A program made the position numbers and the translations under genes. This document shows positions 19,039 to 40,145 of a stretch of 64,000 nucleotides of DNA, one piece after another. The stretch is from an uncultured bacterium (GTDB lineage Bacteria; Patescibacteriota; Saccharimonadia; Saccharimonadales; 2-12-FULL-41-12). Where the stretch lies: contig CAWIAU010000002.1 of assembly GCA_963834265.1 (NCBI GenBank), positions 75,929-139,928 on the forward strand, read 5' to 3'. Position 1 is the first letter of the stretch. Every line of letters starts with the position of its first letter. The notes beneath the pieces are model-generated. The model was not told where the DNA came from, ran no database searches, and worked only from the letters and a program-made list of their open reading frames with translations.

Positions 19039-19489
19039 TTTGACCGGAGTTGACTCATCTTGTTGAACATCTTAAATGTTTCCTATTCCCCGCTCACGCT
19101 GCAGTCTCGTCAGAACTTTATCTCAGTAGTCGGTAATTTTTATATAAACATTAAAGGTTTAGCATTGCTAAAAAAATTATAAATATATATTTATCAGATG
19201 TAATTAAAAATATACTCGGGAAATTCAACCATAACCAAAATAGTTCACTTTGTGAAATAAACAACGAATGAATTTATACAACAAAGTAGGCGGAAAGTGC
19301 AGAATATTTTGCGTAAATAACACTTTAAATTATGTACTGCTTAGACTATGCCTATTGTCAAAAATATCGCTTAAAACCTCACAAATTTGTCAATTTTGTG
19401 TAATAAATATCACAGACCATGCGATATAGTAGTTTTATTCTCTAAGAGGTGCTTGGAGACTAAAAAGAGAAATGAGGAGGGTTCACGCT

Positions 19490-19999
19490 ATGTATAGTCA
19501 CAGCTATAAAAAGCTAAATATATTTCCGGTTATTTCATTTCTCAGCAAAAAGGCTACTCTCAAATTTGCCCTCGCTATATCTCTGATTATTACAATTTTA
19601 TCTCTATTGGCAGTGCAAATTGCGCGTGCCATTAACGGACAGGCTAATACCCTGCTGACCGAAACCGCTCAAAGAGTACAGCTACAGGCAGATGCCCCGT
19701 TGATTTCCTCTGACACTGAGCCTGTTACTGCTGCATCTGCAATATCTACATCCACCACATATGATCAGTCAGGCACTGACTCAAATGTAAAAGTAATTAT
19801 TAACGGCGAAGAAGTACCTGTCCCCCCGAATGGTACTGTAAATAAAGAACTCAGGAATGAGAACGGTCACTCCCGCGTCGACATATCAGTTCAGAATAGT
19901 CAGGTAACTACCTCTTCACAGACTAACAGCGGATCAGGTAGTTCATATTCTCATAGTTACTCCTCTACGAGGCAGACAATTAACGGAGTCCCTCAGTGA
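19490..19999 (+). CDS. Membrane-anchored Ser/Thr-rich hypothetical protein (first gene of surface-protein operon)
   Basis: GAGGAGG lies 8 nt upstream of the ATG at 19490. It has a single N-terminal TM helix (FALAISLIITILSLLAVQIA) and a low-complexity S/T/Q-rich tail. Confidence 0.5.
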   Translation: MYSHSYKKLNIFPVISFLSKKATLKFALAISLIITILSLLAVQIARAINGQANTLLTETAQRVQLQADAPLISSDTEPVTAASAISTSTTYDQSGTDSNVKVIINGEEVPVPPNGTVNKELRNENGHSRVDISVQNSQVTTSSQTNSGSGSSYSHSYSSTRQTINGVPQ

Positions 20000-20109
20000 T
20001 GCAGTAAATGCGTGATCGTTCGATATGGTTACAGATGTGTGCGCACAAGCTGTAACCATATCGGGTGAGCACCCGAGAGTAATAACAATAATAAAGAGAG
20101 GAGTAACTC

Positions 20110-20694
20110 ATGAAAAAGTTACGAACAATCATTGCAGCATCATTGCTAGGGGTAGCCCTGACAACTGGTTTTGCATCAGCTCAGACTGGTACCATCGGCA
20201 CAACTGGTCCCGGCTCTAACAATCAAATTACCTTCAATGGTACAACTGACATCGATGTCGACAACGACAACGACGTAAACGCATTAAACCTGAACCTTCA
20301 GGGCGCTACTTCCGGTAACGCTAACGCAAGCGGCAACACAACTGCCGGCGGTGCTACTTCCGGCAATGCCAGCAACAACGCTTCCAGCAGCACAAGCGTA
20401 TCTGTCAGCAACTCCGGCAGCTCTGCCGCAGCTCTGGCAGGACACGGTAGCGGTGGCTCTAACTCAGCCAGCATCAACCTGACTGGCCCTGGCTCTAACA
20501 ACCAGGTCGAGTTTAACGACACCTACGAAGTTGAAGTTGAGAACGAAAACGAAGTAAACGTTGTGAACTTTAACTACCAAAGCGCAAACAGCGGTGACGC
20601 AAATGTTTCCGGTAACACAACCGGTGGTTCAGCTACCACTGGTGGCGCCAGCAACACCAGCAACACCAGCACTTCTGTTAACGTCAGCAACTAA
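20110..20694 (+). CDS. Secreted protein made of two tandem 'TGPGSNN' Asn/Gly/Ser-rich modules
   Basis: Signal peptide MKKLRTIIAASLLGVALTTGFASA, preceded by an AGAGGAG Shine-Dalgarno sequence. It carries two ~85-aa repeats, each reading TGPGSNNQ.. / alternating N-x-N rungs / SGNANASGNTTAGGATSGNA / S-rich tail ending VSN. Confidence 0.8.
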   Translation: MKKLRTIIAASLLGVALTTGFASAQTGTIGTTGPGSNNQITFNGTTDIDVDNDNDVNALNLNLQGATSGNANASGNTTAGGATSGNASNNASSSTSVSVSNSGSSAAALAGHGSGGSNSASINLTGPGSNNQVEFNDTYEVEVENENEVNVVNFNYQSANSGDANVSGNTTGGSATTGGASNTSNTSTSVNVSN

Positions 20695-20723: not shown

Positions 20724-20770
20724 GATCCAACCTGAGGACCTGACCGTGCCGGGTCAGGTCCCCGGGGATC
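20724..20770 (+). promoter_or_regulatory. GC-rich intergenic stem-loop (GGACCTGACC-gtgccg-GGTCAGGTCC) between small and large module genes; possible attenuator/partial terminator
   Basis: A perfect 10-bp stem at 20736-20745 / 20752-20761 is extended by gatcc/ggatc. No U-tract follows. Confidence 0.4.
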
Positions 20771-20835: not shown

Positions 20836-22971
20836 ATGCAGAAACTTACAGTATCAATCCGAAAGATATTCATTGCTCTCGTAATATGCGTTCAGGTTTT
20901 TGCCGCCCCTGCCTTGATCGTTTCTGCCGAATCAGCCGATGAATCATCTACTGCAGCTGCAGCTGCTTCAACAAATGAAGCTCCCGCACCTGCATCAGAA
21001 ACGGCTCCCGTGGTCGAGGTTGTTACTTCACCTCCTCCTGCTCCGACATATGTTGCGCCAGCACCCCCAACCATAGTTGCTCCCGTACCTCCTGCGGCTT
21101 TGGCACCGGGAAGCACCGGACCGCAATCCCCGACAGGAGTTTCCGGCTCAACATATGTTTTCAATTCCGTCTCAGGACTTTGGGAGAATGACCAATACAC
21201 CTGGGATCCTGTAACAAAGCAGACAAAACCTAAAGTTGCTCCTACCTATAGCTTCAATCCCGTTACGCAAATGTGGGATACAACTGAATGGTATTTCAGC
21301 CCCGAAGCAGGTAAATATGTACCCAACAAAGTATCAACAGCCATCCGGCCGGTTAGTCTTGGTGGCGGAGGAGGTGGCAATTTCTCTATCAATGGCACAG
21401 GACCTAATTCCAATAATACTATTAACAATACCGGCACTTCTACAGGAACTTTTGATTTATTTTTCAACGCCAGTATTAGCAATCAAATAAGTTCAACTAC
21501 CTCCAGTGGCGATGCATTGCTGCAGGGCAATACTATCGGAGGTAATGCTCTCAGCGGTGATGCGGAGGCTATCGCTAATATTCTGAACCTGCTGCAGTCT
21601 TCCTGGGGTTCCCAGTCTGATATTGCAACTTTTATAGCTAGCCTGGACGGGACAATATTCGGCGATCTGTTACTTGATCCTGCTGCTCTGGCAGGGGCAG
21701 CCGGTAGTTCTGATGTCGATATAACCGTCTCCAATAATGCCAGTATCAATAATGACATTAATGTGGCAGTAAACAGTGGGGATGCGACCGTATCGGGTAA
21801 CACAAAGGCCGGAGATGCAACAAGCGGTAATGCCAGAGCATTAATAAATCTCCTCAATCTCATAAATTCGTCAATAACTTCTGACAAATCTTTTATCGGC
21901 ATACTTAATATTAATGGTGATCTGAATGGTGACATTTTGCTTCCGCAGAGTTTCCTCGAATATTTGTTGTATGCAACGGGACCAAACAGCAATAATCAAA
22001 TCAATGGTGGCACCAGTAATAATCTGGCGGTTACAACGGACACTAACCGTAGCATTGTTAATGATATTGATGCTGAAGCAGGAACAGGCGATGCCTCTGT
22101 AAGCCAAAACACCAGTGCGGGCAGTGCCGGCAGCGGAACTGCCGATACAAAGGTTAATACTATGAACCTGGTGGGTCAGAACGTGAACGGGAAAAACGGG
22201 CTGCTGGTATTTGTAAATGTTTTCGGTAAATGGGTCGGCTTGCTTTTCAACGCGCCGCAAGGAACCAGCTCGATAGCAACCACCGGGCCAAACTCTAACA
22301 ATACGATTAATGATGCCGGATCAAACAAACTGACTGTGAATGCAACTGAAAATAGTCTGATCAATAACGATGTCGATGTCACGGCCCGAAGCGGAGATGC
22401 CACTGTAAGCGGCAATACATCGGCAGGAAATGCTAAATCCGGTAATGCAGATATTGGTGTCAGTATTCTGAATCTGATTGACAGTAATCTTAATTTCTCT
22501 GACTTCTTCGGAGTCCTGTTCATCAACGTTTTCGGATCATGGAATGGTAGCTTCGGAATAGATACAGCGGCTGGTAACAGACCAGCAGCAGCTGCCGGCG
22601 GACAAGGCGGAGGTACTTTTGGGTTCGTACCCGCTGCTAATCAGGCCGCTCAGCAAAATCCGGCATCAACAGCTTCCGGGCCTGCGGATAAGTTCTTTGG
22701 CTTGATTGGTTCCCTGGGATCAGGTGGAGGGAATGTAGCGGTTGCTCCTCAGACATCATCTGCTTCTGTTGTTAATGCAGGTGCTGCGGTACCGGCGGCT
22801 AATAATGCTGCGGTTGCAGCCTCCGCATCACAGGCATCTACTCAGAACTGGTGGCTCCCGCTGGTAGCAATACTGCTTGTTGGTCCCCTGCTGTACGCTG
22901 ATCGAATAGTGGCTCTTGTACGACGCGCTGAGCTATTCAGCCACATCGGCTCCCTCCGCCGTATGCCTTAG
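20836..22971 (+). CDS. Large secreted multi-module protein with Pro-rich linker, aromatic repeats, four SGNT/SGNA modules and a C-terminal TM anchor
   Basis: 711 aa. Has a signal peptide and a PAP-rich linker, followed by aromatic repeats Y.FN...G.WEND.Y.WDP / YSFNP.T.MWDT.EWYF. TGPNSNN occurs three times and SGDA.VSGNT.AG.A.SGNA four times. The C-terminus is NWWLPLVAILLVGPLLYADRIVALVRR. Confidence 0.8.
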   Translation: MQKLTVSIRKIFIALVICVQVFAAPALIVSAESADESSTAAAAASTNEAPAPASETAPVVEVVTSPPPAPTYVAPAPPTIVAPVPPAALAPGSTGPQSPTGVSGSTYVFNSVSGLWENDQYTWDPVTKQTKPKVAPTYSFNPVTQMWDTTEWYFSPEAGKYVPNKVSTAIRPVSLGGGGGGNFSINGTGPNSNNTINNTGTSTGTFDLFFNASISNQISSTTSSGDALLQGNTIGGNALSGDAEAIANILNLLQSSWGSQSDIATFIASLDGTIFGDLLLDPAALAGAAGSSDVDITVSNNASINNDINVAVNSGDATVSGNTKAGDATSGNARALINLLNLINSSITSDKSFIGILNINGDLNGDILLPQSFLEYLLYATGPNSNNQINGGTSNNLAVTTDTNRSIVNDIDAEAGTGDASVSQNTSAGSAGSGTADTKVNTMNLVGQNVNGKNGLLVFVNVFGKWVGLLFNAPQGTSSIATTGPNSNNTINDAGSNKLTVNATENSLINNDVDVTARSGDATVSGNTSAGNAKSGNADIGVSILNLIDSNLNFSDFFGVLFINVFGSWNGSFGIDTAAGNRPAAAAGGQGGGTFGFVPAANQAAQQNPASTASGPADKFFGLIGSLGSGGGNVAVAPQTSSASVVNAGAAVPAANNAAVAASASQASTQNWWLPLVAILLVGPLLYADRIVALVRRAELFSHIGSLRRMP

Positions 22972-23057
22972 GCGATACTCAGAAGTATACTTATCTGAAT
23001 TTCGGATTTCTGGTAGTAAAAGCAAAAAACTTAATGACTGTTCGTACTCCGAAAAGA

Positions 23058-24020
23058 CTATACATTATAGGTACATACAGGCTCAGGCGCATTCTGTTTC
23101 GTGCTTTTAAGTAGTTTTCGCTCCAAAACGCACTGAGCAACGCAAGACATAGTCCCATCCAGCTGATCAGGAAATAGTGTTGTACTGTGAAATACAGCAG
23201 CCATATATATTAAATATGCATATACAAGGCTATCTAACAATAGAATTACCGTATGTTTAACAGCAAAACGTTCTGTCTTATAACTTTTAAAAAGTTGAGC
23301 ATAAGATGTTGTAGCCGGCCCATAAACCATAACATCATGCGCATAGAACCCCGACGAAGCCTCCGGATACTGTATAGCCTCGCGACGGGCAATGATACAG
23401 GGTGAAGTTTGCAGGCGACCTGCTTTACGGGCTCTTGCAGACAGAAGATACTCGAATTGCTGTAGCAGAGCAATAGTATTTGTTTTGTCTGTCTTAGGTT
23501 TGATATTTGGCCGAAGAACATTTGCTGAAGGGTTAGCTGCGAACTGATGTACTGCTTTATGCAGCGAATCCCCCGCTAGGATGTCCCGGGGTGATAGTAT
23601 TGCCAATAATCCACCCTTAGTGTATTTGAGAGCGGTTTCAGTAGCTCTCCTGTCCTTTCGACGACGCGCAACAAGGCGAATCTGCAACTTAGGATGAGTG
23701 GCGATATAACTACGTATAACTTTCCGGGTGTTGTCGCCGGAAGCCATGTCAACGATTATAATCTCGTACTTACGATACGATCCTGTGCGAATGCTTTCCA
23801 GACACGGTCCAATCGTTAATTCATTATTGCGGGCATGAATAAGTACGGAAACTAAAGGTCTGTGCCTGTATTGCCGGGCATTCGGATGTTGTTGCACTTC
23901 TCTTTCATGGCGCACGCTCTTTATATCATAAATAATGGCACGGCAATGGATAATAATTGCCCATGACAGTCTGCATATCAACCACCCGGTTACAACTCCC
24001 GTCAGGATATTTATGTTCAT
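23058..24020 (-). CDS. Family 2 glycosyltransferase with N-terminal TM helix
   Basis: Shows a PLVSVLIHARNNE GT-A start and a D-x-D-like IIVDMASGDNT motif. Its start overlaps the sortase stop by 4 nt. Confidence 0.75.
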   Translation of the reverse strand: MNINILTGVVTGWLICRLSWAIIIHCRAIIYDIKSVRHEREVQQHPNARQYRHRPLVSVLIHARNNELTIGPCLESIRTGSYRKYEIIIVDMASGDNTRKVIRSYIATHPKLQIRLVARRRKDRRATETALKYTKGGLLAILSPRDILAGDSLHKAVHQFAANPSANVLRPNIKPKTDKTNTIALLQQFEYLLSARARKAGRLQTSPCIIARREAIQYPEASSGFYAHDVMVYGPATTSYAQLFKSYKTERFAVKHTVILLLDSLVYAYLIYMAAVFHSTTLFPDQLDGTMSCVAQCVLERKLLKSTKQNAPEPVCTYNV

Positions 24021-24610
24021 ATTTTTTCTACCTTCAGCAATGTAAATTCAGCCAGTTGACGTTGCTCATACCAGCTACCTGCGCAGGTTTGCAGAGTAAG
24101 CTTAGGCGGACCACTATAATTAAAAAGTTCTACATTGTCCGGTCGTACACTTTCTGAATTTTTAAATAAATACGTAAATATCTGTGCGTTTTCAGTATAA
24201 ATCTGAACAGTATCGCCAGCACTAAGGTTTTTGAGTCTGTAAAATACCGGCCAGGAGTTGTGTCCGTATATAAGCGTATTTCCGCCGGCGTCGTTGACCA
24301 CAGGAGTAATAAGCGCATAATTTGCATTTATTTCTGAGATTGACCAGTCGCCGTTATCGGGATTGTAGAAGCCGGGCTCGATTACTAAATCTATCTGATG
24401 AGAAGGAACAATTATTCGGACGGGCTTGCCGGAAAGCACTATCTTTTCCGGGATTTGCGGTTTGGGTATTGCAGCATTAGCTGACGGAATGTTTACAACT
24501 TTTTGTCCTGGCAGTATTCGATCAACAGGCATAAATACGTTGACAATAAATAACAGCGTGGCCATGTTGATTATGGCCACGCTGACTATAAAGCGAATCT
24601 TTGGTAACAT
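24017..24610 (-). CDS. Sortase (transpeptidase) with N-terminal membrane anchor
   Basis: Shows the catalytic His context LIYGHNSWPVF and the TLxTC motif KLTLQTCAG, with a downstream Arg. It sits immediately downstream of an LPNTG substrate gene. Confidence 0.85.
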   Translation of the reverse strand: MLPKIRFIVSVAIINMATLLFIVNVFMPVDRILPGQKVVNIPSANAAIPKPQIPEKIVLSGKPVRIIVPSHQIDLVIEPGFYNPDNGDWSISEINANYALITPVVNDAGGNTLIYGHNSWPVFYRLKNLSAGDTVQIYTENAQIFTYLFKNSESVRPDNVELFNYSGPPKLTLQTCAGSWYEQRQLAEFTLLKVEKI

Positions 24611-24632: not shown

Positions 24633-25172
24633 TTAGTTACCGGAACGACGGTAACCGGCCAGCGCAAACTGAGTTGCTGCAGCGATCGCACCAAGTACGA
24701 GAGCACTGATGCCAACCATTGTCAGCACATTGCTGCTTCCGGTGTTCGGAAGAGCCTTAACTGTAACAGGAGCCGGAGTTGCAGTTGCAGCAGGGGTTAC
24801 AGGAGCCGGCCCTGCACCTTGTCCGCCCGCAGGAGCTGCAGGAGCTGGTGTTGCAGCTGGTGCTGCTGCACAAAATACTGCAAGCTGGGTTGCTGTTGTG
24901 TTAATGTTTTCCGCATTTCCGCTGGTTGCTGTACCACTTATAGTATTGCCACTAACATTTGCTCCGCCACTTACTGCAGTCTGCAGATTGACGTTTGCGA
25001 CATTTACGCCATTGGTGCAGGTAACACTCACTACATTACTGTCATTAACTGTACAGGTGTTGTTCGAACCCGGGCCAGTTGTTGTAATCGTGCACGTTGC
25101 TGCGGATGCAGCGCCGGTCATTGTACCCATTGCTATTACTGTTATTGCTAAACCTTTGAATACCTTTTTCAT
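24633..25172 (-). CDS. LPXTG-anchored surface protein carrying one 'TGPGSNN' module
   Basis: Has a signal peptide, then a TTTGPGSNNTCTV ... ANVSGNTISGTATSGNA module and an Ala/Pro linker. The sorting signal is LPNTG followed by a hydrophobic helix and RRSGN. A GAGGGAG Shine-Dalgarno sequence precedes the ATG. Confidence 0.85.
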   Translation of the reverse strand: MKKVFKGLAITVIAMGTMTGAASAATCTITTTGPGSNNTCTVNDSNVVSVTCTNGVNVANVNLQTAVSGGANVSGNTISGTATSGNAENINTTATQLAVFCAAAPAATPAPAAPAGGQGAGPAPVTPAATATPAPVTVKALPNTGSSNVLTMVGISALVLGAIAAATQFALAGYRRSGN

Positions 25173-25755: not shown

Positions 25756-25829
25756 TGGGGAGTGGCCAAGTGGTAAGGCACTGGGTTCTGGTCCCAGGAT
25801 CGGGGGTTCGAGTCCCTCCTCCCCAGCCA
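25756..25829 (+). tRNA. tRNA-Gln (anticodon CTG), CCA encoded
   Basis: Manual cloverleaf: acceptor TGGGGAG/CTCCCCA, D-arm GCC-AAGTGGTAA-GGC, anticodon stem CTGGG/CCCAG with loop TTCTGGT, and T-arm GGGGG-TTCGAGT-CCCTC. The discriminator is G, followed by CCA. Confidence 0.9.
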
Positions 25830-25837
25830 GATGCGAC

Positions 25838-25874
25838 AGCAGAATTTCAGACCTAAGTCCCTAATTCTGCTTTT
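25838..25874 (+). terminator. Stem-loop after tRNA-Gln (agcagaatt ... aattctgct + TTT)
   Basis: A 9-bp inverted repeat at 25838-25846 / 25863-25871 is followed by ttt. Confidence 0.5.
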
Positions 25875-25900
25875 GCATCAGCAAACAGAGAAATACTAAC

Positions 25901-25928
25901 AAAAAGAGTCGTTAATCCGACTCTTTTT
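25901..25928. terminator. Bidirectional rho-independent terminator (AAAAAGAGTCG-ttaatc-CGACTCTTTTT)
   Basis: A perfect 11-bp stem carries an A-run on the 5' side and a T-run on the 3' side. It lies between the tRNA and the 3' end of the recombinase remnant. Confidence 0.7.
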
Positions 25929-25935
25929 GTTTAGA

Positions 25936-27226
25936 TGCTTAGTCTGCGGTAGATCTGCTTATTCTTAACGAATAGTGGTAAGTTTAGACCTCGTATGAAA
26001 CCCGTCTTGTTCATGAATATTGTGCCTTGTCTAAGAACATAGCTCGCATAGTTTCTGAAATGTGCTCTTTCGGAGTGCTGTCAATTCCATGATCCTTTGA
26101 TAAGCTGGCTTGTAACGCGTTTGTATTGTTCGATCTTGTTGAATAATTGCTCGCTCGGCTCAATATCGTCGAATTCTCCCGCATCCGTCATTGCAAGATT
26201 TGTTCGGTGATCATGGTTGCTGTTATTGAGCGCTCCGGACAGTCAGGGTCTTTTGTCGATTTCGTGCACCGATAGTATACATGCCTGTTTCTGCCTCCGT
26301 CCGCTCGCTTTTTGAAATGCTCTTCGACCGTCAGCGTGAGCCACACGCCCCACAGTAGAATAGATGCTTGAACGGGAATTGTCTTTGATCCCCATGCTGG
26401 CTTTTCCGGTACTAGCGAGTCCATGCGTGACTCGAACAATGTCGAACAGTTCTTTTGTGATTATCGGCGGATGCTTACCCACATAGAGCGGACCTCCTGC
26501 GGGATATTCGAAATAGCCGTAGTAGAATGGGTTAGTCAAGGTTCTGTAGATCTGACTTAGCGACAATACAGCGCCAGACTTAGTTCTGAAGTCGATACTG
26601 TCCAAGCCAGTCTTTTATGGTACGCCGCTTTGGTGCAGTCAGACCTGAGCGTTCAAACATTTCCTTAACAATCGGTGCTCGATCGGTGTCCAGCACTATG
26701 TCTCGGACGCCACCGAAAGCTCGGTTTACATAACCAATTGGCGCTGCTCCCGGTCGCCAGCCCATCTCACATTTGGCACGTATGCCACGTTTGACGTTAA
26801 TACCACGATTATCGTTCTCGAGCTTGGCTTGAGAGCACAGGATCATCAGAAGGAACTTCTCGTTCGGCGTGTTGCTGAAGCTTTGTCCAAATGTACGGAT
26901 GCGCTGTAGTCGGTTTAAGTCCATTAAATCTACAAGAGACCCAAGATCTCCTGCATTTCTGCTTAGTCGATCCGGTGCCCAAGTCAGGATTGCGTTGTAT
27001 TCGCCGTTCCTCAAGTCGTGCAGCAAGTTCGTTGAATACCGGCCTATGACCAGACTCCTTTGCCGAGAAACTCTCTTGTTTGATGACAACTACATTCAGC
27101 TCTTCGCGTGTTGCCATAGCTTGCATTTCTTTGATTTGTGAATCGATCGACATTGCCTGTGCGTTCGTCAGACTCGCTCGATTTGCGGGCATAAAGACAG
27201 TATTTAAGTTGAGCAGTATTTTCCAT
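25936..27226 (-). pseudogene. Large serine recombinase (resolvase/invertase N-domain + recombinase + zinc-ribbon), multiply frameshifted
   Basis: Fragments lie in at least 5 frame segments: YCLYARKSSESDER (catalytic Ser region), SIDSQIKEM...RPVFNEL, ILTWAPDRLSRNAGD, GYVNRAFGG..., YYGYFEYP..., YYRCTKSTKDPDCP (zinc ribbon), and a C-terminal tail down to ~25936. Confidence 0.8.
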
Positions 27227-27290
27227 CAACAACAAGGTACCGCAAATCCAGGTAAAGTCTAGCTGTGATAACATCTTAAAAACAGATATA

Positions 27291-30200
27291 ATGTTACGTA
27301 ATATGGCATTCAATGAAGATACTAGAGTCAAAATACCCGCAATCATCCACTTAACTAGGCTAGGCTACAAGTATTTTTCACTTAAAGACAAGAACTATAT
27401 ATTCGATCCCGATACCAATATCATCAAAAACGAGTTTACAAAAAGTATACTTGCCCTAAACCCCGATGCAGAGCTAGATTCAATTGAACAAGAGCTGCGC
27501 AATATACGCGAAGAGCTTAACTATGAAGACCTTGGTCGTGCATTCTATAATCGTCTTTTGGGTGATGGAGATGGTGAGCTCAAGTTAATAGATTGGAATA
27601 ATTTTTCAAACAACTCATTCCACGTCACTACTGAGCTCACGTGCAAGAACGGAGAGGATGAATTTCGTCCTGATGTCACAGTGTTTGTTAATGGTTTACC
27701 AATATCTTTTATCGAAGTCAAAAAACCGAATAATTACGAAGGAATTAAAGCTTGAGCGCGATCGTATCCAAGTTCGTTTTAAGAATGATAAATTCCGAAG
27801 GTTTATTAACATAACTCAACTTCTCGTGTTTTCAAACAACATGGAATATGACGATACCGACACTAATAAACTGCAGGGTGCGTTCTATGCAACTACTGCA
27901 AAAAACGATGATGCAAAATTCAATAATTTTCGTGAGCAAAAGAAGTCTGAATACATAGACCTTATAAAGAATGTCGATGAAGAGATAGAAGACTTTATTC
28001 TTGCAGATAACAACTGTAAAGTGATAAAGCATTCTCCAGAATTTATATCAAATACAGATATTGACACTCCTACCAATCGGCTTATATCGAGTCTATATGC
28101 GACAAATAGGCTGCATGAAGTACTAAAGTACGCGCTTTGCTATGTCGATGAGGTAGATAAAGAGACGGGCGTTGTTTCAATACAGAAGCACATAATGAGG
28201 TACCCTCAGTTCTTCGCAACCAAAGCAATAAAATCCAAGCTGGCAGAAGGTATTAAAAAAGGCGTCATATGGCATACGCAAGGCTCAGGTAAAACAGCCC
28301 TTTCATTTTACAATGTCAGTTCGTTAAAAGATTACTTTGCAAAAAAAGGTATTGTACCGAAATTTTACTTTGTTGTTGATAGGATAGATCTTGCCAATCA
28401 GGCTAAGGATGAATTTAGTAAGCGTGGATTGAAAGTTCATTCGATTGATAGTAAGGATGCGCTGATCAAGGACTTCAAGAACAATACCTCTAATGAAGGG
28501 ATGACTGTACTCAATATACACAAGTTCCGCGAAGACACTGTTGCATTGAACGATAGCGGTTATGATATAAAAGTCCAACGAATATTCTTTATCGACGAAG
28601 CACATCGTAGCTATGATCCAAGAGGATCTTTTCTTGCAAATCTATATAACTCGGATAAGGACTCCATTAAAATTGCCCTTACTGGGACGCCTTTGATTAT
28701 TTATTCAGACCATGATGACAAGGGTGACATCAAAGATTCAACACAAAAAGAAGACAGCAAGACAACTCGCAACATCTTTGGTGATTATATCCACAAGTAT
28801 TACTACAATGATTCTATACGTGATGGTTACACCCTAAAGCTTTTGAGAGAAGAAATTGAAACAAGCTATAAAGAAAAAGTTAGGGGCATAATCAGCGATA
28901 TTAAGGTGCATGCTGGTGATATCGACAAAAGAGATTTATACGCTCATGAAAAATTTGTTGATCCTATGCTCCACTATATATTGAAAGATTTTACCGAATC
29001 CAGAATACGATTCGGAGATAAGTCTATTGGTGGTATGGTTGTGTGTGACAGCTCATCTCAAGCCCGTGAAATGTTTAAACTTTTCAAAGAATCTAGCGAA
29101 GTGCACGGGCTTACATCTGCGCTGATCCTGCATGACGAAGACGACAAAGATACTCGTAAGAAGAAAACGAAAGACTTCAAAGACGGGAAGATTGATATTA
29201 TGTTTGTCTATTCAATGCTTCTAACTGGTTTTGATGCGCCTAGACTAAAAAAGTTGTATCTTGGTCGAAAGATTAGGGCTCATAATCTGCTACAAACATT
29301 GACACGTGTCAATCGTCCTTACAAAAACTTTAAATTGGGCTATGTTGTAGACTTTGCAGACATATCTGCAGAGTTTGAAATTACTAATCAAGCTTACTTT
29401 AAAGAGCTCAAATCTGAATATAGCGAAAATCTTGAAGACGAAGATCCATCAAATATCTTTGGGTCACTATTTATGAGTAAAGCAGAGATAGATCAGCAGA
29501 TCAGTGAAGTTCAAGTAGCAATATCCGACTATACAACTGAAAATCTTGAAACTTTCAGTCAGCAGATCAGCCAAGTTGATGACCGACAGCATATCTTAGA
29601 ACTTAAAACGAGCGCTAGAATCAGCGCGAGATGTATATAATGTCGCGCGACTCCTAGGCTATACGGAAATACTAGAAAAGTTAGACTTTAAGAAACTTGC
29701 GAAACTACTGACTATGGTGAGTGATCGACTTAAGCTTCTAAATCTTAAAGATGCCATGAATGACATCAACTCAAAAGAGTTACTAAACACTGCAATTGAA
29801 GATGTAATATTTAGTTTTACAAAGACGGGCGAAGAAGAACTCAAGCTACTATCTGAAGATTTGCATAATTCTGCCGGCAAAGTTCGCCATGAGCTCGACA
29901 GGAATTTCAATAAAAAAGATCCAGAATGGCTGTCGCTTTATGAGGCTTTCATTAAACTTCTCGACAAGCATAATATCGATCCAGATTCTGAAAGTATAGA
30001 CTCGATGAAATTCGAATCTGAAGAACTTAAGAGAATCTTTGAACAGATAAAAGAGCTTAATAGAAAAAATTCAATGCTGACTTGCCAAGTTTGATGGTGA
30101 CCGTAAGTTTGCAGTTATCTACAAAAATCATCAACCAACCGGTAAGGTTAGCGACAATATAGCACTATACAACCTTCTAAACGATGCAAAAGCAAAGATT

Positions 30201-30380
30201 GACACACGACTTACAAATAGTCAGGATATTCTTTCAAATCAAGGCTATTTCCGTCAGACAACAGGTGAATACATCCTTGATAGTTTTGACAATGGAAGCT
30301 ACGATCTAAACGCTCGATTAGTCCGCAATCTAATAACAAACACTGCAGATGAATATTTGGCAGAATACCAAGGAGAATAA
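27291..30380 (+). pseudogene. hsdR: Type I restriction enzyme R subunit (HsdR), at least three frameshifts
   Basis: Shows the HSDR_N start (EDTRVKIPAIIHLTRLGY, FIEVKKPN), helicase motifs (HTQGSGKT, FIDEAHRS, TGTP, LLTGFDAPRL, QTLTRVNR), and a C-terminal KFDGDRKFAVIYKN. Frame breaks occur near 27753, ~29600 and ~30085. Confidence 0.85.
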
Positions 30381-31110
30381 ATGGAACACACAGATTTTTC
30401 AAATAAAGCAAAGCAACTTATTGACGAACTTAAGGGTATTTGTGCTAGTGCTGGGCTTGGTGGTGATGCGAACGAATACAAAATAGTTACCCAAAGTTTC
30501 TTGTATAAATTCTTAAACGACAAATTCTTGCACGAAGTTGGTAAGCTTGATCAAAGCCTGAAAACGTATGAAGACCTCAAGGCAATAGACAGCGATAAGT
30601 ATGATTTATTGATGATTAAAATCGGCACAAAGACTGCTCATCTCAAACCTGAGCATTTACTAGATTATTTATTTAAGCATCAGAACGATGGTGATTTTGC
30701 GAAACTATTCGATAATACCCTTAACGACATAGCAGTTGATAACTCCGATGTATTTTCTGTCCATACTGCCGGTAACACTGAGATTCGACTTTTTGAGGAA
30801 GAATTAATTGCTGATGCAGTTAACGACAAATCTCAACATGACATCACGGCACGTAAAATTATTAACAAACTTGCTGACAGTAAGTTTGAACTAGATGAAA
30901 TTTTATCGGCAGGCTTCGACTTTTTCTCAACAATGTTTGAGTATATGATCAAAGACTACAACAAGGATGGAGGTGGCAAATATGCCGAATACTACACGCC
31001 TCATTCAATAGCGAAAATTATGGCAGAAATTCTAGTCGGTGATGATACGCCAACTAACGTTACGGCATATGACCCAGCCGCAGGTTCAGGTACTTTGCTT
31101 ATGAACATCG
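30381..31110 (+). pseudogene. hsdM: Type I R-M methyltransferase subunit (HsdM), 3'-truncated
   Basis: Has the HsdM N-domain plus AdoMet motif I (YYTPHSIAKIMAEIL...YDPAAGSGTLLMN). Homology stops before the NPPF catalytic motif. No hsdS follows. Confidence 0.8.
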
Positions 31111-31112
31111 CA

Positions 31113-31326
31113 CAAGGCTGGCCAGAAGGTTGTTGCGCTTGTTGGTGATAATGCGACTATCAAGAGACTTAATAAAGAATCCGGATACTGGGTATTGGAG
31201 CCAGTTTCAAAAAACCCAATACATAAAAAATTAATTATGGTTGAGGACTTCGCGATACAGGGTGTGGCTGTGGATGTTGTTGAAACTAGAGGGACGGTAA
31301 GTGATGGCACTAGAGGATACGCTTAG
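31113..31326 (+). pseudogene. C-terminal fragment of an S24/LexA-type peptidase (phage-repressor-like)
   Basis: The third-frame translation VVALVGDNATIKRLNKESGYWVLEPVSKNPIHKKLIMVEDFAIQGVAVDVVETR has the typical S24 C-terminal beta-strand pattern. No N-terminal HTH or catalytic Ser region is present upstream. Confidence 0.45.
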
Positions 31327-38466: not shown

Positions 38467-40145
38467 CTAGCTCTGTTTAGGTGGTTCGTCGTCTTTGGAA
38501 TCCAAAGGATTTGTAAGTTTATTCTTATCGACACCCAATATTCCACTCAGCGGATCTTTCGGTATATCTTCACCAGACCCCCAACCCCCTATCTTATGAA
38601 GCGCTTGTTCGGAAGCCCGTATATTGTCTGCGGCTTGTGTATATGTTGAATGTGTAGGAAAACCTGAATTCATAGTATCGGTATTTAAATCTATACCGCC
38701 TCCTTTTATTTGCGCCTGGCCGCCGGGACCGGTGGTGATATTAATGTCGCCATTTCTTATACTTGTAGTTCCGTCAGGTCCGGTAGTGATGCTCATAGAG
38801 CCTTTAACTATGTCGAGACTACCATTGCTGATTTTAACGTGATCATTATTGGTGCTTGCTTCATTTCCGCTTCCCGTTGCAGTAACTGTACCTTCAGGAA
38901 GATTCCCTGCTCCGGTGCCATAATCAGCGGGCGGGTCATTATTCGTTTCGGAAATATCAGTGTTTGCGTAATTGTTGCCGGAAGTCTGAATATTACTCTG
39001 GTTAAAGGTTGAGCTTTCGCCCACGCTGCTGACGGACTCTCCCGGTGCGCCCTGGGTGGCTGTGCCTTCAGAGCCTGATATATTGCCGTTTGACGATTCA
39101 AAAGATGGTTTAGTAGAAGCTACATTACCTGGTGACGATTCCTCAGATACAGGAAGAGCTACCGGGGTGCTATCGGTAGTAGGAATAGATACCGGAACTG
39201 TGCTGCCAGGATGATTATTACCGGAAACAAGTACGCCGTTATGATATGTCTGGGTATCGTTATGAGTTACCGTAGAACTTTCGCCCACGCTGCTGACGGA
39301 CTCTCCCGGTGCTCCGACTGCTGACGGACTGGAAACGCTGCTATCTCCGCTTTGATTACTCACAATCTGACCGGTCGATGCGTCGGCGCCATCTGCACCG
39401 GTATTAATGACCGGTGCACCGGGGGATGATTGATTATTAATGTTTGTAGCCTGAGAATAGTTAGTGTTAGATTGCGAACCTGTACCTGGAGTGCTGGTGG
39501 ACTGGCCGGACCCCCCGGAGTTGCAGTTCCCTGACTACTACTTGTGCTCCCGGGTATCGTAATCGTGCCCGGTTGTGCAAAAGAACTCTGCGGCATGCCG
39601 GTAATCGGGTTAATAGCAGGATGCTGCGTAGCTGTAACATTATTGTTATCCGAAATCTGCGTTTGCGATTGATTAGAAGTCTGGCTTGTACCTGTGCTGC
39701 TAACGGATTGTCCGGGTGCTCCCTGTACGGCTGTGCCCTGGGTATTATTCACATTTCCGGTCATACTATCACTGTTGCTGCTTTCTACAAACGGACCTTT
39801 GGCAGAAGCCACATTGGATGCACTTTCATCAAAAGCGGGTTTTGTAGAGGGGGTATTAACGGGAGGAGAACCGGTTACCGGTGATCCGTTATTAGAAATA
39901 TAGGTATCATTTTGAGTAACTGTAGAGCTTGCGCCCGTGCTGCTATCAGACTGGCCATCGGCCCCCTGTACGGCTGCACCGACTGCTGCACCTGTTGACG
40001 AATCATCAGTATTGGAAGTTTGCGCACCGCTGCCACCAAAAACTATACTACTGCCCTTGTCAGTATTTGTTAATCCGGGAGTTACTGCCGGATCATTATT
40101 ATCGAACACTATGCTATGTTCATCTGAAGAAAGACCTTTAGCCAT
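38467..40145 (-). pseudogene. Repetitive Ser/Thr/Gly/Asn-rich protein (~559 aa if joined) split by a 1-nt frameshift in a C6/G6 tract
   Basis: ORFs 39360-40145 and 38467-39363 become one frame if the plus-strand C6 run at 39511-39516 were C7. There are four ~100-aa repeats (GAPG[EQ]SVSS.G.S.T ... TKP[AS]F[DE]ES). The C-terminal beta-rich part contains TTGPDG/TTGPGG. No signal peptide is present. Confidence 0.6.

Follow-up and report, generated by a model that had tools for sequence, protein, structure and literature searches.

Among the chaplins of Streptomyces (ChpA-H, PF03777), the short secreted members form amyloid fibrils on the cell surface, the long members are anchored by sortase, and most possess an intramolecular disulfide. 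Curli (CsgA/CsgB) and the FapC of Pseudomonas are functional-amyloid β-solenoids with Gln/Asn ladders and a surface-bound nucleator. Saccharibacteria and other members of the candidate phyla radiation (CPR) are host-attached bacteria whose envelope proteins mostly lack annotation. Here we describe a repeat unit of ~76 amino acid residues encoded in a stretch of 64,000 nucleotides from an uncultured bacterium of the Saccharimonadales (GenBank assembly GCA_963834265.1, contig CAWIAU010000002.1, positions 75,929 to 139,928; hereafter the window, in which all coordinates are counted from the first letter). The unit is shared by three window proteins, the secreted p194, the membrane-anchored p711, and p179, which bears an LPNTG motif. 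Sequence comparison identifies it as a domain family not described before, with a conserved gene module in the Saccharimonadales.

The repeat unit and its family

We built a hidden Markov model (HMM) of 76 positions from the units of 43 p194 homologs (alignment A1) and searched all six translated frames of the window with it. Seven copies were found, two in p194, four in p711, and one in p179, with domain E-values of 6e-8 to 2e-27, and none elsewhere even at E≤10. In composition-adjusted BLASTP, units 1 and 2 of p194 match each other at E=1e-11 with 58% identity, p194 matches p179 at E=5e-22 with 49% identity, and p194 and p711 share four separate high-scoring segment pairs (E=6e-8 to 4e-4). 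A unit of ~80 residues common to the three proteins, as read by the first-pass annotation of the window, is thereby confirmed with similarities far beyond chance. The segment that had been singled out there, 20185-20694, corresponds to residues 26-194 of the open reading frame (ORF) at 20110-20694 (+) and holds both units and the stop codon.

The close homologs of p194 number 176, almost all of them 190-202 residues long; the few that carry a name are called 'hypothetical protein' and come from Candidatus Saccharibacteria or Saccharimonadales. When 1.84 billion cluster representatives were searched with a profile, the unit family came to 2,216 clusters at 50% identity (E≤1e-3), 1,324 of them at E≤1e-10. 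With one genome scanned per species, 139 species proved to carry the gene; the titles of nearly all read Saccharibacteria, Saccharimonadales, or Patescibacteria. As judged from these searches, the unit is specific to the Patescibacteria (CPR), chiefly the Saccharimonadales. A further homolog search with a profile of divergent units returned two matches only, owing to a limitation of the word index, and did not widen the taxonomic range. The p194-type members are pure unit arrays. Two units are present in 192 of them, three in 49, four in 14, and five or six in a few, and nearly all arrays stop exactly at the Asn that closes the last unit.

The HMM of the unit and the homolog search thus yielded a large family that corresponds to no described one. 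No Pfam-A or NCBIfam model matches p194, p711, or p179, and no consistent family emerges for the 43 members of A1 either; the p194 profile finds nothing among the PDB sequences at E≤10. A confident match to a known domain, which would have spoken against a new module, appeared neither in these searches nor in Foldseek. Domains of surface-layer (S-layer) type anchors, such as SLH, CWB2, or similar, were not found by Pfam or NCBIfam in the three proteins. A full-text literature search on Saccharibacteria or Patescibacteria sortase or surface proteins, on S-layers, and on the motif strings retrieved no work on the unit family or its motif.

Fold of the unit

Alignment A1 contains 26 invariant columns, has a mean column identity of 49%, and shows almost no insertions or deletions within the units. 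Among 536 distinct units, columns of low and high entropy follow each other in strict alternation for more than 50 residues, which divides the chain into two faces. The conserved face has a mean entropy of 0.99 bit and 1% charged residues, vs 3.1 bit and 30% charged residues on the alternate face. It comprises N27, N29, V31, V33, N35, N37, Q39, A41, S43-G44, A46, V48, N51-T52, G54-G55, A57, S59-G60, A62, N64, V72, V74, and N76. One long arm thus presents N, N, V, V, N, N, Q, A, S/G, A, V, and the other presents G, A, S/G, A, N, N, T, T, V, V, N. The alternate face is hypervariable and often charged, and hence exposed. The earlier claim that charged or aromatic positions are absent from the unit accordingly holds for the conserved face but not for the alternate positions across the family.

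Covariation was analyzed by mean-field direct coupling analysis (DCA) of the 536 units (effective number of sequences, Neff, 522), and the strongest pairs among near-invariant columns (T7, P9, N13, T52, and N76) were set aside as subfamily artefacts. In the remaining couplings, the TGP turn is the centre of an antiparallel hairpin (i+j about 17-18), positions 16/17 form another short pairing with 25, and a long antidiagonal (i+j about 103-105) runs through 27/74-76, 39/64, 41/62-64, 46/57, and 48/54-57. From these, the anatomy of the unit is read as a short hairpin with an invariant T-G-P-x-S turn, followed by a long element of strand, tip (G-N-T), and strand. The long-range couplings join conserved-face positions only, and between the variable positions of the arms there is neither coupling in DCA nor charge complementarity; with moderate confidence, the two long arms therefore appear to meet face to face rather than as a solvent-exposed, hydrogen-bonded ribbon.

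The cysteines of p179 provide a further view of the same contacts. Cys27 and Cys40 flank the TGP hairpin, and Cys52 and Cys101 stand at the places of the conserved Asn52 and Asn101 of p194. The four Cys had been noted as unique to the LPNTG paralog, which is true within the window; moreover, they are kept in its orthologs, where the pair of mid-strand and unit-end Cys occurs in 24 of 25 and all four Cys in 20 of 25. They behave as two conserved pairs, so that their suggested role as stabilizing cross-links becomes that of probable disulfides, predicted as Cys27-Cys40 and Cys52-Cys101. These predicted bonds fall exactly on DCA contacts and thus constitute an independent check on the covariation-based fold. 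CPR genomes are enriched in MdbA- and VKOR-type oxidoreductases (PMC6744442).

Structure prediction was performed with AlphaFold2 (AF2). The model of p711 residues 180-570, obtained with 109 sequences, has a mean predicted local distance difference test score (pLDDT) of 72.8 and a predicted template modelling score (pTM) of 0.68, with 26% of the residues disordered. The four unit cores and their hydrophobic arms reach a pLDDT of 85-97, and the TGPNSNN segments and linkers fall below 50. Since the pTM is 0.68 although a quarter of the chain is disordered, the four cores make up a single rigid body in the model and not beads. Neighbouring units may be stacked in parallel or may form an antiparallel meander. 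In the low-confidence model of p194, the long strands lie where the covariation places them. All 14 PDB matches listed by Foldseek, none of them significant, are parallel β-helices or solenoids; the weak matches are to MpAFP, NeuO, FapC, CsgA, RbmB, Hbp, SufD, CAP, TBCC, and gamma-carbonic anhydrase. The top one is 3p4g, a Ca2+-dependent antifreeze protein (E=2.3, TM-score 0.06), and CsgA (8c50) and FapC (9nqd) have E about 3 and a TM-score of about 0.07, non-significant as well.

Taken together, the invariant columns, the two-residue periodicity, the covariation, and the conserved Cys pairs indicate that the unit is a folded domain and not structurally low complexity. Of the β-solenoid or stacked-β fold with Asn ladders proposed in the first-pass annotation, the folded, repetitive all-β module stands, with its Asn-rich uncharged face, its two-residue periodicity, and its arm-arm covariation, but the solenoid or amyloid topology is for now a hypothesis, no structural match being significant. 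Disordered low complexity, named there as the contrary outcome, left no sign in the unit core. We regard the unit as an autonomous, strongly conserved all-β building block of ~76 residues.

In 205 two-unit proteins, units 1 and 2 of the same protein have an identity of 0.31 at variable positions, vs 0.15-0.21 for orthologous units. Equivalent variable sites in the two units bear charges of the same sign 2-2.6 times more often than expected (-/- 625 vs 287; +/+ 195 vs 75). The two units of a p194-type protein look as if they undergo concerted evolution.

The unit proteins and their gene neighbourhood

The secreted two-unit protein p194 (20110..20694, +; 194 residues) starts with a predicted Sec-type signal peptide (20110..20181, +; MKKLRTIIAASLLGVALTTGFASA, cut before QTG), in which a basic n-region, a hydrophobic core, and an A-x-A site are kept across A1; cleavage would take place at the A-x-A site. 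Unit 1 (residues 26-101; 20185..20412, +; independent E-value (i-E) of the unit HMM 4e-24) and unit 2 (residues 119-194; 20464..20691, +; i-E 2e-27) are joined by a 17-residue Gly/Ser/Ala linker. The mature form of ~170 residues and 16.4 kDa has an isoelectric point (pI) of ~4.05 and a net charge of about -13; it contains 13 Asp/Glu, 3 Phe, and 2 Tyr but no Lys, Arg, Cys, Met, or Trp, and Asn (19%), Ser (16%), Gly (14%), and Thr (12%) dominate the composition. Among the homologs, 81% have a pI below 6, and some are basic with a pI up to 10.7. N-x-S/T sequons in p194 are not enriched over composition (12 vs 9.0 ± 2.3). The C terminus of p194 is the invariant Asn of the unit, and the ending ...V.V.N is common to nearly all family members. 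Such an ending leaves a free C-terminal Asn carboxylate.

A strong putative Shine-Dalgarno sequence, read from the sequence (GAGAGGAG; 20096..20103, +), lies 6 nt before the ATG of p194. Between the p194 and p711 genes, we found a GC-rich stem-loop with a 10-bp stem and no T-run (20736..20761, +; GGACCTGACC-gtgccg-GGTCAGGTCC). Most loci likewise have a strong stem-loop, of unrelated sequence, just after the p194 homolog (median z -2.9; z below -2 in 45 of 67). The element is likely an attenuator, a terminator, or a stabilizer of the mRNA 3' end, and as attenuation or mRNA stabilization it would make p194 the major product. On the strength of the Shine-Dalgarno sequence and the conserved stem-loop, p194 is probably the abundant subunit among the unit proteins.

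The four-unit protein p711 (20836..22971, +; 711 residues, 735 homologs) is composed of a signal peptide, a Pro/Ala linker, aromatic repeats, four units, a stalk, a C-terminal transmembrane helix, and a basic tail. The stalk is long, of low complexity, and rich in Ala/Gly/Gln, and each of the units has an extra hydrophobic arm. They are unit A (residues 184-245; 21385..21570, +; i-E 1.3e-10), unit B (residues 291-334; 21706..21837, +; i-E 5.9e-8), which is without the TGP start, unit C (residues 380-440; 21973..22155, +; i-E 1.7e-11), and unit D (residues 478-539; 22267..22452, +; i-E 1.9e-13), and the core of each has a pLDDT above 90. At the distal end, two to three copies of an aromatic hairpin-like repeat (TY.FN..SG.W....Y.WDP; residues 92-164; 21109..21327, +) are conserved in the p711 homologs (alignment A2) and may form a glycan- or host-binding tip. 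The p711 profile matched among PDB sequences only the uncharacterised entry 4r03_A, weakly (E=0.13) and over the aromatic repeats, not the unit. The transmembrane anchor, assigned by inspection, is WWLPLVAILLVGPLLYA (22849..22899, +), followed by an Arg-rich tail; the hydrophobic C terminus is conserved in A2 and in a homolog on the divergent CPR contig L083 described below.

The one-unit protein p179 (24633..25172, -; 179 residues) contains a signal peptide, the unit (residues 27-99; 24876..25094, -; i-E 3.7e-19) bracketed by Cys27/Cys40 and Cys52/Cys101, a Pro/Ala stalk, a sortase recognition motif LPNTG found by motif inspection (residues 141-145; 24738..24752, -), a hydrophobic segment (residues 149-173), and the basic tail RRSGN. 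It scores 14.3 bits against TIGR01167 (LPXTG anchor), under the cut-off of 15.9 bits; p179 therefore qualifies as an LPXTG cell-wall-anchored protein by motif inspection and not by the curated threshold. About 25 loci encode one-unit orthologs with LP.T[GS], mostly LP.TS and not LP.TG, on either side of the p194 homolog. The sortase gene starts 22 nt downstream of the p179 gene (24017..24610, -; Pfam Sortase 4.5e-15; His in IYGHN, Cys in TLQTC), and its product scores under the cut-off of every NCBIfam sortase class. A GT2 glycosyltransferase gene (23058..24020, -; Pfam Glycos_transf_2 1.4e-13; N-terminal transmembrane segment) comes last in this p179-sortase-GT2 operon, which is convergent to the p194 and p711 genes. 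The GT2 protein has 320 residues in the window vs 389 in the orthologous cassette L001, and the missing C-terminal transmembrane part aligns weakly (E=0.008) in another frame at 22991-23158, which suggests a frameshift or a sequencing error at the 3' end of the gene.

Directly upstream of p194 lies the gene for p175 (19472..19999, +), a small membrane-anchored protein with an N-terminal transmembrane segment, a Ser-rich tail, and a conserved motif of ~35 residues, V.VNG..V.VP.NGTV.K....ENG.T.VD. It matches no Pfam or NCBIfam family. In 43 of 71 loci, phmmer detected homologous ORFs upstream of the p194 homolog. p175 probably belongs to the core of the module as its third component.

Conservation of the neighbourhood was assessed in 82 fetched loci with a p194 homolog. 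A p711 homolog lies directly downstream in 80 of them, a sortase gene within 7 kb in 34, and a GT2 gene near the p194-p711 module in 19. The same six-gene cassette, in the same order, is present in a groundwater Saccharibacteria genome in which p194 is only 49% identical. On L083 (6001-10174), the gene for a secreted six-unit protein is immediately followed by that for a larger six-unit protein with W-containing hydrophobic inserts and a C-terminal transmembrane helix; the unit variant reads N.TTG..S.N...TG.N.A..NTGDG.V.TGDA. This p194/p711-like arrangement implies that the gene pair is much older than the Saccharimonadales. Since the pairing recurs in distant loci including L083, we consider a secreted array paired with a transmembrane-anchored array to be the conserved core as judged from gene order, and the sortase, LPxTG, and GT2 genes to be frequent accessories.

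Beside the cassette, the window contains a tRNA-Gln gene (25756-25829), broken and overlapping serine-recombinase ORFs with a Resolvase N-terminal domain (26243-27192), and type I restriction-modification genes (SWI2/SNF2-ResIII at 27658-29640; N6_Mtase at 30381-31148). The region 25756-31148 adjoins the unit cassette and resembles what is left of an element that had integrated at tRNA-Gln. Farther on, two ORFs in different frames with a 4-nt overlap (38467-40145, -) share the same Ser/Thr/Gly-rich repeats (...QGAPG.SVSS.G.S...) and have no Pfam match; they could be either a split or frameshifted gene of one repetitive secreted protein or two coupled paralogs. A relationship between the unit and the TTGPDG/TTGPGG motif of this protein had been proposed. 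The motif is present, in 38467-39363, but there is no profile similarity to the unit, and we rejected the kinship of this protein, in which the unit HMM gives no match.

Surface assembly and comparison with known systems

The p194-type proteins consist of units only, and their function should therefore lie in the association of units with each other or with a partner. In the reading we prefer, the unit proteins form a surface coat or fibre in which the secreted p194 stacks on the anchored p711 and p179; we put its probability at roughly 45%, and it is accordingly offered as tentative. The modules would associate module-on-module via their conserved faces and open strand edges, and p194 would build up on p711 and p179 to give a coat or fibre on the cell surface whose core is rich in Asn/Gln; such an arrangement would resemble that of short and long chaplins, or of CsgA and CsgB in curli. 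p711 would present four modules at the end of its stalk, held in the membrane by the C-terminal helix. p179 would present one module, stapled by the two predicted disulfides, on its Pro/Ala stalk and would be linked to the wall by the adjacent sortase. What we show is the unit, its family, the linkage of the genes, the two-faced β pattern, and the contacts between the arms; the stacking geometry, the polymerization, the relative abundance, and the surface location of the unit proteins are what we infer here.

Several observations weigh against this coat or fibre. The net charge of p194, about -13 without Lys or Arg, and the recurrence of same-sign charges at matching sites of units 1 and 2 would both oppose simple in-register stacking or amyloid-like growth unless cations or partners compensate them. 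The AF2 model of p194 alone, from 43 sequences, is unreliable (pLDDT 47, pTM 0.27), and the two-residue turns between arms 2 and 3 of the p711 model resemble those of ordinary β-hairpins. Foldseek gave no significant neighbour in the PDB, the best match having E=2.3, and nothing in BFVD. Sortase and LPxTG genes were found within 7 kb in only 34 of the 82 loci; given this minority, anchoring via p179 is not obligatory. The stronger form of the assembly, a CPR-specific polymer of a hitherto unseen β fold, in which p194 grows in a cross-β or solenoid-like manner with Asn/Gln ladders, is templated by p711, and is tied to the wall by p179, is doubtful to us.

The alternative that survives best is a surface domain that does not polymerize. 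Here the unit, or a face-to-face pair of units, would be a closed, elongated β-sandwich, and such beads would be strung together in coat, spacer, or adhesin proteins that stay monomeric; p194 itself would be soluble or loosely associated with the wall, and the three paralogs would be independent. The conserved Cys pairs and the covariation within the unit agree with such a self-contained fold, the tight turns of the AF2 model suit antiparallel hairpins, surface antigens and adhesins typically have such a hypervariable, exposed face, and the like charges at equivalent unit positions disfavour in-register stacking. However, what one two-armed unit buries does not suffice to keep it stable by itself, which fits the poor monomer model of p194, and AF2 fixes the four p711 cores in one body (pTM 0.68) instead of beads. 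The p194-type proteins consist of units without any ligand-binding or enzymatic part, and the p194 and p711 genes stay together almost without exception across a deep divergence, which argues for a joint function. We consider this explanation unlikely, if still one to be reckoned with.

A β-solenoid that binds cations, mineral, or ice is improbable. Its exposed rows of Asp/Glu or flat arrays of Asn/Thr would bind Ca2+/Mg2+, mineral, or ice in the manner of RTX-like antifreeze or adhesin proteins, a function to which the strong acidity of mature p194 (pI ~4.05, no Lys/Arg) and of the 81% of homologs with a pI below 6 would be suited, as would the same-sign charge ladders between units and the top, non-significant Foldseek match 3p4g. 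The charged positions are, however, the hypervariable ones, some homologs are basic with a pI up to 10.7, the exposed face is without a conserved ligand-binding motif, and the 3p4g match has E=2.3 and a TM-score of 0.06.

The composition of p194 (N 19%, S 16%, G 14%, T 12%), its pLDDT of 47, and the GT2 gene in the neighbourhood might instead recall a disordered, mucin-like, possibly glycosylated surface protein of low complexity without a defined fold. This is very improbable in view of the invariant columns, the near-absence of indels within units, the two-residue periodicity, the covariation, and the conserved Cys pairs; the unit cores of p711 have a pLDDT above 90, and the sequons are at background level (12 vs 9.0 ± 2.3). 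A classical Gram-positive pilus polymerized by sortase, with the unit proteins as pilins, is hardly credible despite the sortase and LPNTG protein encoded beside the module, as the sorting signal occurs only in the one-unit p179, p711 is anchored by a transmembrane helix, p194 has neither LPXTG nor, in this genome, a Lys for the isopeptide link, no Cna-B or pilin Pfam match was found for the three proteins or the 43 members of A1, and sortase is absent from the 7-kb neighbourhood in most loci. Without LPXTG and without a pilin-motif Lys, a sortase-assembled pilin identity of p194 is essentially refuted.

The unit gene set, nearly always a linked pair and present in at least 139 species genomes, is among the most conserved envelope gene sets of the Saccharimonadales. 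If the coat or fibre is real, it would be a major variable-faced surface antigen or an attachment structure of these epibionts, built from a new β-repeat fold class and possibly a new functional amyloid. Were the polymer real as well, the Saccharibacteria cell surface and the contact with the host could depend on it to a large extent, and it would be a third independently evolved functional-amyloid-like envelope system beside curli/Fap and chaplins. Even in the conservative reading, the unit is a new domain family worth curating, and p194, a secreted, acidic, Cys-free protein of 16 kDa, is easy to express.

Among known surface proteins, the Pam pili of the saccharibacterium Ca. Mycosynbacter amalyticus are built from PamA and PamB, two-domain Ig-like pilins of 55 and 39 kDa that are joined by donor-strand exchange, with no sortase link and no Asn-rich repeat reported (bioRxiv 10.64898/2026.03.03.709456). 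Like the unit proteins, they are CPR-specific, Sec-secreted, previously unannotated surface proteins with Cys pairs, but they differ in size and architecture, a distinction drawn from the published description only. LPXTG wall-anchored proteins share with p179 the signal peptide, the LPNTG motif, the hydrophobic stretch, the basic tail, and a gene immediately upstream of a sortase gene. In p179, however, the passenger is the new unit, the sortase falls under the NCBIfam class cut-offs, and the orthologs mostly have LP.TS.

Curli and FapC also consist of imperfect N, Q, G, A, S-rich repeats that form strand-turn-strand elements, with a secreted major subunit and an anchored paralog. Curlin_rpt (PF07012; S-x5-Q-x-G-x-G-N-x-A-x3-Q) nevertheless has no match at E≤1 in the unit proteins or in the 43 members of A1. 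The curli repeat has 19-23 residues in contrast to the 76 here, and curli depend on an outer-membrane secretion channel, whereas the host of the unit family is monoderm and the family is restricted to CPR.

Compared with chaplins, which have a hydrophobic module of ~40 residues, the unit family uses a hydrophilic, Asn-rich unit of ~76, its anchored p179 has one unit and its secreted p194 two, and a third paralog is anchored by a transmembrane helix; the Chaplin profile (PF03777) gives no match at E≤1 for p194, p711, p179, or any of the 43 members of A1. With amyloid assembly hypothetical here, the resemblance is by organisation only: in both, a small β-rich module is found in secreted paralogs and in others anchored by sortase, a sortase is encoded together with them, the envelope is monoderm, part of the family has a Cys pair, and there are no other domains.

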